A DNA stretch of 64,000 bases from Thermoanaerobaculia bacterium (GTDB lineage Bacteria > Acidobacteriota > Thermoanaerobaculia > Multivoradales > Multivoraceae). A program made the position numbers and the translations under genes. Position 1 is the stretch's first letter. Each line of letters begins with the position of its first letter. This document shows positions 20,343-24,000 of this stretch, one piece after another. The DNA is taken from positions 2,840,982 through 2,904,981 of the forward strand of contig OZ243982.1 of assembly GCA_965214805.1 (NCBI GenBank), written 5' to 3'. Below the pieces are notes generated by a model. The model was given only the letters and a program-made list of their open reading frames with translations. It was not told the DNA's origin and made no database searches.

Positions 20343-21020
20343 TCAGCCGCCGAGCATCTTCTCCCTGCGCTCGGCGCGGCTGAACGTGAGTGCGACGATG
20401 GCGACGATCGCGAGAGCGACGCCGATGCGGTTCTGAACGTTCAGCGCGAGCATCTGCGCTGCGTCGGCGTCTTCCACCGCGAGCGGATTCCAGAAAGGCG
20501 AGATGCGGAACGAGCCAAGCAGCCTGTTGAGGCCGAGGAGGCCGACCGTGGCCAGGGACCCTGCCACCTCGCTGCGGAACAGCGTTCCGAAGCCCATCGC
20601 CGCGGCGAGGTAGAAGACGACCCCCTGAGCGGCGCCGTAGAGAGTCGGCAGGATCGGGAAGTCGGTGAAGAAGGCGTAGGTGACGGCGGCCAGGAGAACC
20701 AGGCTCGAGAGCAGCATCAGGATCGCGGCGGCGAGCTTGCCGAGCCAGACGCGATGGGCGCCTCCGGGCACGGTGTAGGCGATCTCCAGGCTGTGCTGGT
20801 CAAGTTCGCCGGTGATGGTCCGCCCGCCCAGAAAGACGGCGAGAACCGCTGCCGGCACGCCGATCAGACCGTTCTGCGCCGCCGCCGGGTCCATGCTGGC
20901 CCGCATTCCGGCCACCAGCATGATCGCCTGTATCCCCAGCCACAGCAGGGGCAGGAAAGGCAGCAGCCAGTACCTGCGCCCGGCAAGCAGGACCGCGGAC
21001 GTGCGCAGCACGGTGATCAC
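20343..21020 (-). CDS. ABC-2-like multi-pass membrane protein (paralogue 1)
   Basis: GTG start overlaps the upstream TGA; GELDQHSLEIAYTVPGGAHRVWLGKL; ends AERREKMLGG like the 18954 gene. Confidence 0.78.
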   Translation of the reverse strand: MITVLRTSAVLLAGRRYWLLPFLPLLWLGIQAIMLVAGMRASMDPAAAQNGLIGVPAAVLAVFLGGRTITGELDQHSLEIAYTVPGGAHRVWLGKLAAAILMLLSSLVLLAAVTYAFFTDFPILPTLYGAAQGVVFYLAAAMGFGTLFRSEVAGSLATVGLLGLNRLLGSFRISPFWNPLAVEDADAAQMLALNVQNRIGVALAIVAIVALTFSRAERREKMLGG

Positions 21021-24000
21021 GCCGGCGCCTCCCCGCGCACCGACCGGGCGAGCCACAGGTAGCCGTCCTCGAGGGTCGGCTCGACCGGTTCGGCCTGTTC
21101 GTGCGGGCGGTCTGCGGCGAGCACGCGCAAGCTGCTGGCGCCGTCGGGTTCCGGCTTCTGGTCGGCCAGCACCGCGCCTTCCGGCAGTTCCGGCGCCTTG
21201 GTGCCGTCCGCCGTCCGCCATGACCACACCCGACCCTCCGCTTCCCGCGACAACGCCGCCGGATGGCCGTCGAAGACCATCCGGCCGCGCGTCAACACCA
21301 GGACCCGCTCGCATGCCACGGCGACGTCTTCGACCACGTGGGTGGAGAACAGCACGATCCGGTCCTTGGCCAGGCGCGAGAGCAGGTTGCGGAACCGGAC
21401 CCGCTCCCGGGGATCCAGGCCGACCGTGGGCTCGTCGACGACGATGATCGGCGGCAGCCGGAGCAGGGTGCGCGCCACCGCGACCCGCTGCCGCATGCCG
21501 CCCGAGTAACTGCCGATCTGCTCGTCGGCGCGCTCGTCGAGCCCGACCTCTCGCAGCAGGGTCGAGACGCGGCCAGCCCGCTCGGAAGCGTCGATCTGGT
21601 AGAGCGCGGCGTAGTACTCGAGGTACTGGCGGGCCGTCAGCCGAGGGGGCAGGCCGGCGTCCTGCGGCAGGTAGCCGACATAGCGCGCGAGCCGCTTGCG
21701 GATGCTGAGCAGCGGTACACCGCCCAGCGTGATGCGGCCCCGGGTCGAGTCCAGAATGCCGGTCAGCTGCCGCAGCAGGGTGGTCTTGCCGGCGCCGTTC
21801 GGGCCGAGCACGCCGACCATGCCGCGGTCGACGTCGAAGCTGACCGCGGCCAGGGCCTTCACGGTGTCGAGCGGCAGGTCGAGGCCGAAAAGCCTGGTGG
21901 CGGCGGTGCGCCAGAAGCGGAGAATCCGGCCGCGCAAGCCTCGAGCGCGCCGTCGCCTGGACGTCCCCTGTTCCCGGCGCATTGTCTCCACGCGCGCCGT
22001 GCGGCGTCCGAGCTGGATCAGCAGGATGATCGTGGAGATGATGGCCAGCGCGACGAACCCTCCGACCTCCGGGTCGGCGATCATCTCCGGGGCGGCCAGC
22101 CACGCCAGGAGACCCCATGGCAGCAGGGCCGCTGCCGCGCCTTCGACGCCGCCGGGCTCGACGCGGCCGAGAGCGTCGGCGCGGCCGCGGGCGCGGCGGA
22201 TCTCGCGCAGCAGGCTGGAACCCAGGACCAGGATCGCGATCCAGATGCCGAGGATCACCAGGCTGGCCTGCATCCGTACCGCCAGGGCGATCGCGCCGGC
22301 CAGCAGCAGCAGCAGGGGCAGGAGGCGGTCGCGCGCGTCGGCCGGATGGAAGGCCTGGCCGCCGCTCGAGGCGACGCGCCTGGCGAACTCGGTGGAAGCC
22401 CGGAGCGCACGGCGCACGGGTCCCGGAAGGCCGTATGTCTTGCGCAGGTGGCGTACGACAAGTCTGGGCGGACCGGCAACCGCTTCCGGTTCCGGTGTCG
22501 GCGGTTTCGGCAGCAGCCAGACGGTGAGGCCCAACAGCGCGCCCGAGATGAGCACCGTCGTGGCGACCTGCCAGAACAGCGACTCGATCACGCCGAACCC
22601 GAACAGCGGCGCGGTGATCGCGATGACGGCGCCGAGCCAGGCGAGCACGACCCAGGGGCCTACGCGGCTGAACAGTTCATCGAGCCGGCGGAGGAAGACG
22701 AAGCCGACCGGGATGACGAGCAGCGTCAGCACGGTCGCGGTCAGGAGGCCGCCGATCACGAGCGTCGCGAAGGGCGGCCAGAGTTCGTTCTCGCGCCCGG
22801 TGGAAACGGAGAGGGGCGCCAGGGCGGCGATCGTCGTCGCGGACGTCATCAGCACCGGACGGGCCCGCTCGCGGACCGCGGCGAGGGCGGCGGCGCCCGG
22901 GCTCCAGCCGGCGCCCAGGGTGTGCTGCTGCATCCGGTCGACGAGAAGCACCGCCGGGTTGATTGCCAGTCCAAGCAGGACGAGTGCGCCGAGCAGGGCC
23001 ATCGCCTCGAACCCGATGCCGGTCAGCACCAGCGCCCACACCGAACCGAGCAGGGCGAGCGGAAGAGCAACGAGGACGAGGATCGGCAATGTCATCGACT
23101 CGAACGTCACCGCCAGCACGAGGAAGACGAGCAGAACGACCGGCACCGCGATGCGCCGGAACCAGTTCGTGCTCTCCTCGGAGCGGTCGAGCGCGATCGT
23201 CGTCCCCGCAGGCCGGTGGATTCTGGCGATCGCCTGGTCCAGGCTGCGGTCGAACGCGTCGCGTGCCGGACCCCGCCGCGGCACGTCCGGCGACAGGGTG
23301 TACAGCACTTCCCGTTCGCGGACGCCGTTGTGGTGCGTGATGACCGGCGAAGGAGGCGCCTGCCGCACCTGCGCCAGGGCCGCGACCGGCAGCACGCCGA
23401 CGCCGGTCGAGACGCGAAGCCGCTGGAGGCCGCTGAGGGACACGTCGCGGTCGACGCTGCTGCCGTCCATCAGCTGCGCTCCGTCGCGCCGGTCTTCCAG
23501 CCGTTGCACGACGATCGGCAACTCCCGTCCGCTGGCCAGCGGGAAGCCGGCGGCGATCCGGGCACCTTCCCGGCCGGCCAGATTCAGCATGGGCAGCACT
23601 TCGTCGAGCAGGACGCCGAAGGTGTCGAAGGCGCTGCGGTTCGGACTCACGTGGAGTTCGTCGGGTCCCGGGCGCACTGCCTGATAGGCGGACGCAATGC
23701 CCTCGATCTCCCGCAGCCGCTCGGTGACCTGGGCCGCGAGGTCCGTCAGCTGCTCGTTGTCGTTGCCGGAGAGGACGACCCGGGAGGGGCCGCCGCCGAG
23801 CAGTTCCTTGGCGTCTCCGCCGCCTCCGCCTCCGCTGCCGCCTCCCCGACCTCCAGGGCCTGCCCCCTCGCCGGGATTCAGGAGTTCGGCGCCGGCGCGC
23901 CGGGCCGGCGGCCGCAGGAGCTGTCGCACTCGGGCTGCCGTCAGTTCCTCGGGCCGCTCGTCCTCGTCCACCAGGTGCACGGTGAGCGATCCGCCTTCTT

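Follow-up and report, generated by a model that had tools for sequence, protein, structure and literature searches.

In a 64,000-nucleotide stretch of the genome of a Thermoanaerobaculia bacterium (assembly GCA_965214805.1, contig OZ243982.1, positions 2,840,982 to 2,904,981; hereafter the window, whose own numbering is used throughout), we found a gene whose product joins a complete resistance-nodulation-division (RND) permease to the nucleotide-binding domain (NBD) of an ATP-binding cassette (ABC) exporter. The first β-strand of this NBD, LVVRHLRKTYG, is separated from the rest of the domain by 189 residues that hold four membrane helices, and is predicted to complete the NBD sheet from that distance, giving a domain that is complete but discontinuous. 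The RND fold, the ABC-2-type NBD with its permease, and the periplasmic adaptor encoded nearby are known parts; the covalent union of RND and NBD, and the opening of the first NBD hairpin by four membrane passes, are new. We consider it moderately probable that the protein belongs to an ABC-2 exporter held by a covalent tether to an RND pump made of two paralogues and one periplasmic adaptor, and that the assembly would export in two stages. The family of RND-NBD fusions appears to be unpublished.

One polypeptide carries an RND permease and an ABC ATPase

The original prediction for this DNA described an ABC ATPase fused to an RND pump and split by a membrane insert at 21017-22680. This interval proved to be the C-terminal third of a gene that extends, on the minus strand, to 25837. 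The encoded domains follow in the order RND permease, two transmembrane (TM) helices, NBD strand 1, four TM helices, NBD core, and C-terminal domain (Table 1). The Pfam family ACR_tran matches residues 8-1049 at profile positions 4-1020/1021 (E 2.8e-147; 492.6 bits, cut-off 28), and hydropathy agrees with 12 TM helices and two large periplasmic loops; both the full-length profile match and this layout are features of the RND superfamily. ABC_tran matches residues 1331-1471 (E 6.7e-28, 98.4 bits against a cut-off of 25). The RND body, the two extra helices, and LVVRHLRKTYG were all found where they had been placed before, and the stretch between strand and core, earlier put at ∼190 residues with three or four hydrophobic helices, holds four helices in its 189 residues by both hydropathy and AlphaFold. 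VKALAAVSF, which had been located at ∼21860, begins at residue 1326 (position 21862).

The family alignment comprised 70 rows that were 53-92% identical to the window protein. In agreement with the earlier description of the Walker A, Q-loop, signature, Walker B, and H-loop motifs as intact, GPNGAGKTT, LPQD, YSGGM, VVDEP, GLD, and STH are all present, and their key residues are invariant in the 70 rows. These intact, invariant motifs suggest that the NBD is catalytically competent.

Homologues were collected by a word-indexed search with residues 1050-1606 as the query, restricted to proteins of 883-2811 residues. Both PF00873 and PF00005 were present in 120 of 120 clusters among the matches listed, which were mostly 1570-1690 residues long and, over the C-terminal 557 residues, 52-99% identical to the query. 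Representatives at 50% identity, searched exhaustively with HMMER, included more proteins of ∼1550-1600 residues that align over the whole 560-residue C-terminal region, with identities down to ∼30%. In a locus scan that took one genome per species, 80 loci were kept. The query was matched from residue 1-4 to at least residue 555 in 38 of them, some on complete chromosomes, and four more were cut by contig ends; the remaining 38 (L043-L080), 37 of them from Bacillota, match the NBD core only. The full-match loci are labeled Acidobacteriota, Desulfobacterota, Gammaproteobacteria, and, in one case, 'Bacteroides sp.' Those of Acidobacteriota include Candidatus Multivorans (91% identity; Acidobacteriota, class Thermoanaerobaculia, in the NCBI taxonomy), Thermoanaerobaculia, Vicinamibacterales, and Ca. 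Polarisedimenticola; those of Desulfobacterota are labeled Desulfatiglans and Desulfobacterales; and the gammaproteobacterial labels include Pseudomonadales, Azotimanducaceae, OM182, and Alteromonadaceae.

The genome of the window consists of one 4.17-Mb contig, on which the fusion gene occurs once. Two contigs from a second, older study (runs X5 and X6; 12,777 and 12,773 bases) span 21778/21780-23500 with nine substitutions and no indel, bridging the end of the RND body, both extra helices, strand 1, and the entire insert, and end at the Walker A coding region. Single contigs from runs X1 and X2, which belong to one study and maybe to the source sample, cross 21500-23500 with 0 differences. 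No RNA data set was among the 21 runs listed. The short-read contigs of four runs break or branch at 21768-21834, around the Walker A coding region, where the summed depth rises ∼40- to 60-fold. We read this spike as a k-mer common to other ABC genes, and the breaks probably explain the many truncated 'stand-alone' database entries of 300-420 residues within the fused clade described below.

The original prediction had named absence of the fusion from reads and homologues as grounds for rejecting it; the fusion is present both in homologues and in independent contigs. We regard as practically negligible the chance that misassembly, a frameshift, or a gene-call merge joined separate RND and ABC genes: contig breaks at Walker A do yield truncated database entries, but we found no point in support of an artefact, which is contradicted by the same architecture in every listed cluster, in 38 full loci, and in a one-contig genome, by independent contigs that cross 21780-23500 without indels, and by the lack of a stop in 1606 codons. 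The 1606-residue protein is one genuine polypeptide, and it is conserved.

Three homologue clusters of 1840-1876 residues (P0064, P0065, and P0071) also carry sigma-70 region 4 (PF04545, PF08281), which may reflect an additional fusion or the merging of gene calls. In the periplasmic part of the fused RND, residues 656-674 (23816-23872, minus strand) form a low-complexity loop rich in glycine, GEGAGPGGRGGGSGGGGGG, and homologues are G-rich there too.

The detached strand is predicted to complete the NBD sheet

Residues G1122, P1124, L1131, K1133, Y1135, G1139, and P1140 are invariant in all 70 rows of the family alignment. The L-x-K-x-Y of the strand is part of the pattern h-x-h-x-x-L-x-K-x-Y that opens canonical NBDs, and Y1135 occupies what we take to be the position of their adenine-stacking A-loop aromatic residue. 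Among 31 representatives of 1528-1601 residues, some of them only 30-40% identical, the pattern was found 181-226 residues before Walker A in 25; the other six gave no regular-expression match for the strand motif or, in P0180 only, for Walker A. In unrelated long ABC proteins from this list, 24-35 residues separate the motif from Walker A. In six shorter RND-NBD fusions (1389-1451 residues), which join the NBD directly to TM12 without extra helices, the distance is 46-71 residues and the intervening sequence is a soluble loop of 30-50 residues.

We modeled residues 1040-1606 with AlphaFold2 from the 70-row alignment (model 1; mean predicted local distance difference test score [pLDDT] 83.5, predicted template modeling score [pTM] 0.68). 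In model 1, residues 87-96 of the model (protein residues 1126-1135; block pLDDT ∼91) form a strand, which is accompanied by six long helices and an NBD of normal form. Its alignments to solved NBDs begin at model residue 83-87 and at chain residue 1-2. The best fold match was TM_1403 (4yer_B; Z 28.2, 264 of 277 residues, model 83..560), and further matches included LptB (4p33_A; Z 27.0, root-mean-square deviation [rmsd] 2.0, 230 of 235 residues), FtsE (8hd0_A; Z 26.6, 212 of 218 residues, model range 86..484), and MJ0796 (1l2t_A; 218 of 230 residues). The detached strand must belong to these structural alignments, because the contiguous core (approximately model residues 285-484) has too few residues to account for 212 aligned positions. 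A second model was built for a divergent subfamily, with the 501-residue P0170 as the first row and the other rows 30-64% identical to it (model 2; mean pLDDT 89.7, pTM 0.81). Here the strand is at residues 33-43 (block pLDDT 96), four helices precede the core, and the alignment to TM0544 (1vpl; Z 29.0, rmsd 1.4, 234 of 238 residues) pairs model 32..494 with chain 2..239. In this subfamily the K of the strand motif is invariant and the Y is present in at least 90% of rows.

Strand packing was read from the secondary-structure assignment of the models and from the alignment ranges. The predicted structure contains a RecA-like core and an antiparallel β-subdomain that includes strand 1, with Z scores of 25-30 to solved NBDs. 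Taken together, both models predict that LVVRHLRKTYG packs into the NBD sheet as strand 1, which was the test proposed with the original prediction. The models and their structural alignments also support the proposal that the NBD is tethered to the membrane through an insertion in its N-terminal β-hairpin.

It is very improbable, in our judgment, that LVVRHLRKTYG resembles a first strand by chance and that the NBD either has no canonical strand or takes the stretch immediately ahead of VKALAAVSF in its place. The placement is itself predicted, and AlphaFold could be biased to finish a familiar fold from a familiar motif. Chance resemblance is difficult to reconcile, however, with an L-x-K-x-Y that is invariant in 70 rows and recurs in the divergent subfamily, with the high local confidence at which both models dock the strand, and with the residues preceding strand 2, which form a helix and then coil (pLDDT <50 at model residues 280-283) and not a strand.

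The termini of RND permeases are cytoplasmic, as established for AcrB. In the predicted topology of the fusion protein, TM13 would lead out of the cytoplasm and TM14 would bring the chain back, strand 1 would lie in the cytoplasm, and TM15-18 would then precede a cytoplasmic NBD core. By hydropathy the insert helices are at ∼1172-1190, 1193-1213, and, more weakly, ∼1234-1253, followed by 1258-1277. The Arg-rich segments REIRRARGR (after TM16) and GRRTARVETMRREQGTSRRRRARGLRGR (after TM18), as read from the sequence, fit the positive-inside rule. In the cytoplasmic segment that follows strand 1, G1139, P1140, V1155, G1159, G1160, F1163, and P1165 are invariant or nearly so in the 70-row alignment. 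The many invariant residues in this segment and in the TM16-TM17 loop suggest that the insert is more than a passive spacer.

The site of the insertion has a parallel in NBD1 of CFTR. As described in one CFTR study, a regulatory insertion of ∼30 residues (404-435) lies between strands 1 and 2 of that domain, and channels cut into fragments 1-432 and 433-1480 are normal in their burst durations, locked-open lifetimes, and ATP dependence of gating (PMC2217481). Since the severed channel still gates, an NBD can tolerate a long or broken connection between strands 1 and 2. The fusion protein resembles CFTR NBD1, as presented there, in carrying its insertion at the same site of the antiparallel β-subdomain. 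The CFTR insertion is short, soluble, mobile, and phosphorylated, whereas the one found here has 189 residues, four membrane crossings, and invariant loops, and no sequence relationship between the two is claimed. The present family indicates that an ABC ATPase domain can be built from two chain pieces that lie four membrane passes apart, as a natural counterpart of the artificial cut in CFTR.

A separate ABC-2-type permease is the most likely partner of the NBD

The gene that directly follows the fusion gene encodes a small putative ABC-2-type permease (permease A), and its GTG start overlaps the TGA stop of the fusion gene (GTGA). We compared gene neighborhoods by tblastn of the cluster proteins against L001-L043. 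Directly downstream of the fusion gene, each of the 42 family loci has a permease ortholog, full in 41 and cut by a contig end in one.

Complexes were predicted from the C-terminal region of the fusion protein (70-row alignment) and permease A (38-row alignment). The predicted docking of permease A on the NBD scored 0.64, 0.63, and 0.66 by ipSAE, compared with 0.06 for the best control. This mark was reached by 116 of 157 solved complexes and by 2 of 215 mismatched pairs. The runs agreed in at least 90% of contacts, with a partner pLDDT of at least 74. On the NBD side, the predicted interface comprises the Q-loop and the groove of the helical subdomain, plus Y1135-G1136 of the detached strand. 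On the side of permease A, it comprises residues 1-15 (N-terminal helix), 75-91, and 219-223 (C-terminus), and residues 75-91 include the invariant E79, T83, P85, G86, and G87. These predicted contacts and the conserved place of the permease gene suggest that the NBD most likely works with the separate downstream permease A and not with its own six helices alone.

We also considered whether the extra helices are a captured ABC-2 permease. This candidate received no support, as profile-profile comparison of the C-terminal region with permease A gave a probability of 1%, with E 0.055 over 27 columns. Searched against the ESM Atlas, residues 60-290 of the C-terminal piece scored at best 0.79-0.81, to hypothetical clusters of 43-47 residues, which is in the chance range.

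Among NCBIfam models, GldA, DrrA, and NodI give the NBD core its highest scores, and in this respect it resembles the ABC-2-type (type V-like) exporters DrrAB, NodIJ, GldAFG, and NosFY. The putative permease that follows it, of 225 residues and six helices with a conserved TM2-TM3 loop, is predicted to dock in the groove. Like TM_1403 and NosF, the NBD carries a C-terminal domain, and TM_1403 and TM0544 are its nearest folds (models 1 and 2, respectively). It stays outside the named ABC-2 NBD subfamilies of NCBIfam, with scores of 166.2 against 402.6 for GldA, 162.2 against 312.45 for DrrA, and 137.5 against 521 for NodI, and it differs from ABC-2-type exporters in its fusion to an RND permease and in its detached strand. 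To our knowledge, neither an RND fusion nor a detached strand 1 is known in the DrrAB, NodIJ, GldAFG, or NosFY families.

Two RND paralogues differ in a residue next to the proton relay

Upstream of the fusion gene are genes for an RND paralogue without an NBD (RND1) and for a periplasmic adaptor. The order adaptor, RND1, fusion gene is kept in 33 of the 37 loci that have upstream sequence. This arrangement of tandem RND paralogues with one adaptor gene resembles that of the heteromeric RND pumps MdtABC and MuxABC, of which the former is reportedly a heterotrimer (MdtB2C). Unlike in those pumps, one paralogue carries six extra helices and an NBD. The fused RND is only ∼30% identical to RND1.

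We aligned the RND body to the solved pump 7cz9_A and aligned 32 RND1 and 35 fused-RND orthologs, and we examined the positions that we take to form the proton relay, namely D407 and D408 (TM4), K940 (TM10), and R971 and T978 (TM11) in AcrB numbering. In both paralogues D407 is kept as Asp, Asn replaces AcrB-type D408 and K940, and the R971 and T978 equivalents are retained. The corresponding motifs are VDNS (TM4), VNP (TM10), and RPVLMT (TM11) in the fused RND, and VDN (TM4) and VND (TM10) in RND1. At the TM10 residue after K940, all 32 RND1 orthologs have Asp, whereas 34 of the 35 fused RNDs have Pro and one has Ala; the consensus of the divergent subfamily has Asn there (VNNG). In these alignments, the paralogue that bears the NBD consistently lacks the TM10 acidic residue that its partner retains. 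The fusion protein falls outside the HAE-1 multidrug RND group (AcrB/MexB type), as N replaces both D408 and K940, and NCBIfam RND_permease_2, whose cut-off is 1250, gives it 371.5.

All RND-fused NBDs form one clade

A quick, unrooted IQ-TREE maximum-likelihood tree was computed from 68 NBD cores. All RND-fused NBDs fell into one clade (SH-like approximate likelihood ratio test [SH-aLRT] support 95), separate from 19 stand-alone NBDs. Within this clade are 34 long-insert forms, six short-insert forms, and eight short proteins of 301-418 residues; the long-insert forms and the short proteins together make up a sub-clade with support 93. One row, P0197, lies outside the fused clade on a very long branch at the root of the drawing. 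Seven of the eight short proteins align with part of the insert, their matches starting at query residue 182-276, and the match of P0131 starts at 269, just before the NBD core. We take these eight proteins for fragments of fused genes and not for free versions of the NBD. The tree is compatible with one fusion event and one later expansion, in which the loop between strands 1 and 2 grew into the membrane, with no order of events claimed.

Proposed mechanism and competing explanations

In the tethered two-stage exporter that we favor, the NBD would be fixed to the membrane at both flanks of its first β-hairpin, beside the RND subunit, and its coupling groove would take the TM2-TM3 loop of permease A. 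The NBD would hydrolyze ATP as a dimer, such that the NBDs of two fused protomers would come together on ATP and drive a pair of ABC-2 permeases. This ATP-driven module would move the substrate across or out of the inner membrane, and after a hand-over the RND module and the adaptor would carry it onward through the envelope. The dimerization, the hand-over, and the class of substrate are what we infer in this scheme. We speculate that a 2:1 heterotrimer of the RND paralogues could be involved, as it would supply exactly two NBDs.

Several points weigh against this proposal. The docking of the strand and that of the permease are both model predictions. An NBD and a permease are a textbook pair, and because the predicted contact is the textbook NBD-permease contact, the docking result may come from likeness to solved complexes such as NosFY. 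Permease A had no match in Pfam (E ≤0.1) or NCBIfam (E ≤0.01), and its paralogue, permease B, falls just under the Pfam cut-off. A trimer is the usual state of RND pumps, and NBDs function as dimers, which complicates the stoichiometry. No outer-membrane channel gene is present in the cluster. The Pseudomonadales loci L013, L015, L017, and L025 have the fusion gene and the permease with no RND1 or adaptor gene directly upstream, so the two-paralogue pump is not obligatory in the neighborhood. The shorter RND-NBD fusions, which lack the extra helices, fit a direct functional link between RND and NBD at least as well as a mere tether, and no biochemical or structural description of any family member was found in the literature.

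The main rival of the tethered exporter is an RND pump that is itself driven or assisted by ATP. The NBD dimer would then act on the fused RND through the strand-1 tether and the six helices, replacing or supplementing a partly lost proton relay, while the partner paralogue stays proton-driven. What sustains this explanation is the absence of the TM10 acid together with the short forms whose NBD comes directly after TM12, and it is also favored by the Asn residues at the D408 and K940 equivalents of both paralogues, by the VNNG of the divergent subfamily, and by the single, separate clade of RND-fused NBDs. We nevertheless consider it unlikely. The coupling groove is predicted to be occupied by a separate permease that is conserved in every family locus; the fused RND keeps the TM4 Asp (D407 equivalent) and the TM11 Arg and Thr, so proton coupling is possible; and the role of the TM10 Asp in the partner is itself conjectural. 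An NBD is not known to drive an RND fold by any mechanism. A more specific scheme, in which an ATP motor stands in for part of the proton relay of the fused RND, seems to us quite unlikely: two fused protomers would join one proton-driven protomer in a heterotrimer, their NBDs, each held at the membrane by its split first hairpin, would dimerize on ATP, and this motion would reach the RND transmembrane domain through the six helices and the bound permease, such that ATP and the proton gradient would both power one trans-envelope pump.

Some ABC-2 and type VII systems, such as NosDFY, FtsEX, and LolCDE, transmit force without transport. The NBD and the permease could likewise be a regulatory or assembly tether only, serving as a sensor or gate that responds, for example, to the level of ATP or to stress in the envelope, and that switches the RND pump but moves no substrate. 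The invariant cytoplasmic loops of the insert could be interaction surfaces for such a role, and NosDFY, FtsEX, and LolCDE have entries among the fold matches. The invariant catalytic Glu, H-loop, and signature argue instead for real turnover over mere binding, and we hold a purely regulatory role to be decidedly unlikely, although the present data do not separate it from transport.

Like MacAB-TolC and other adaptor-dependent ABC exporters, the tethered exporter would combine an ABC ATPase and a periplasmic adaptor in a trans-envelope system, and MacB NBDs are among the fold matches. In MacB the NBD is N-terminal, contiguous, and on the same chain as a four-TM permease with a large periplasmic domain, whereas the periplasmic machinery of the window system has the RND fold. 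No published RND-ABC fusion or membrane-split NBD was found in the literature searched, a scope outside which lay subscription journals, TCDB, and InterPro, and where a review of tripartite pumps speaks of fusions or hybrids, it makes no mention of an RND-ABC fusion (PMC8277102).

The proton-driven RND pumps and the ATP-driven ABC exporters, taught as alternative engines, are here joined in one chain, and the union is conserved across at least three phyla. If the ATPase acts on the RND fold, this would be a new way to energize or gate RND pumps; if it only tethers an ABC-2 exporter, the result would be hard-wired two-stage efflux. The practical gain is modest for now, and the hosts are uncultured environmental bacteria.

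Feature coordinates and neighboring genes

Table 1. Features of the fusion gene and of the export cluster, in window positions (TM, transmembrane; ORF, open reading frame; aa, amino acids)
Feature	Position	Strand	Basis or remark
Whole fusion gene	21017-25837	minus	1606 codons plus stop, open throughout (ORF list, translation)
RND body, 12 TM helices and periplasmic domains, residues 1-1050	22688-25837	minus	ACR_tran; alignment to 7cz9_A
Extra TM helix 13, ∼residues 1058-1080	22598-22666	minus	Hydropathy; AlphaFold helix, model residues 22-41
Extra TM helix 14, ∼residues 1087-1110	22508-22579	minus	Hydropathy; AlphaFold helix, model residues 48-69
Detached NBD strand 1 (predicted), LVVRHLRKTYG, residues 1126-1136	22430-22462	minus	Conservation; AlphaFold strand; structural alignment
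Cytoplasmic segment after strand 1, LPGPVRRALRAS...ADARDR, residues 1137-1171	22325-22429	minus	Conservation; two short helices at model residues 101-106 and 108-118
Four-TM insert	21971-22345	minus	Hydropathy; AlphaFold helices 1165-1188, 1192-1216, 1230-1254, 1256-1289
Conserved cytoplasmic loop of insert (TM16-TM17), REIRRARGRADALGRVEPGGVEG, residues 1211-1233	22139-22207	minus	Invariant R, R, G, G, G, G, E, P
Amphipathic helix before strand 2, residues 1301-1317	21887-21937	minus	AlphaFold helix, model residues 262-278
NBD core from strand 2 (VKALAAVSF)	21242-21862	minus	ABC_tran; fold matches Z 25-28
Walker A, GPNGAGKTT, residues 1345-1353	21779-21805	minus	
Q-loop, YLPQDAG, residues 1389-1395	21653-21673	minus	
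Signature, YSGGMRQR, residues 1444-1451	21485-21508	minus	
Walker B, IIVVDEPTVGLD, residues 1464-1475	21413-21448	minus	
H-loop, FSTHVVED, residues 1497-1504	21326-21349	minus	
β-rich C-terminal domain after NBD, residues 1537-1606	21020-21229	minus	Strands at model residues 498-534, helix 550-560
Canonical contiguous ABC-2-type NBD, cluster head	33701-34846	minus	ABC_tran E 3e-31; start codon uncertain
1163-aa protein	30171-33662	minus	Weak ABC-2/GldF-like N-terminus, ∼800-residue middle without assignment, Golvesin_C end (Pfam, NCBIfam)
Periplasmic adaptor (membrane fusion protein), 368 aa, lipoprotein-like N-terminus	29068-30174	minus	NCBIfam RND_mfp E 2.7e-46, 158 bits (cut-off 94.9)
RND paralogue 1 (RND1), 1058 aa, without NBD	25865-29041	minus	ACR_tran E 9.9e-198
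Permease A, ABC-2-type, 225 aa, six hydrophobic helices	20343-21020	minus	Paralogue of permease B
Small signal-peptide-like ORF, MMTKILPLAVAALVLSAGGAFA..., ∼100 aa, between the two permease paralogues	19719-20027	minus	
Permease B, ABC-2-type, 248 aa	18954-19700	minus	Paralogue of permease A; Pfam ABC2_membrane_2 E 1.1e-5, 25.3 bits, just below cut-off 27.2

The first gene of the export cluster encodes a canonical, contiguous NBD that matches DrrA (E 1.2e-55) and GldA (E 6.4e-53), in both cases under the curated NCBIfam cut-offs. Together with the 1163-residue protein that follows, it makes up a second ABC-2-like system at the head of the cluster (30171-34846, minus strand). The 1163-residue protein precedes the adaptor in at least 26 loci.

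At the other end of the cluster, the permease gene is amplified in this lineage, with two copies in the window, three in L001, and three full copies and one partial copy in L005; most other phyla have one. The small signal-peptide-like ORF between the two permease genes has counterparts of 39-54% identity in the six closest loci only (L001-L006, at ∼12540-12930). Directly after the cluster (18006-18741, minus strand), a PIN-domain gene (18006-18392; Pfam PIN E 1.5e-13) is preceded by a 115-residue ORF without a family match, a layout that resembles a VapBC-type toxin-antitoxin pair. Elsewhere in the window, 8777-13421 on the plus strand encodes a separate CusB-like adaptor (HlyD_D23, E 2.4e-69) together with a third RND permease (ACR_tran, E 1.8e-218; TM4 motif VDAS), which are probably an ordinary metal-type efflux pair.

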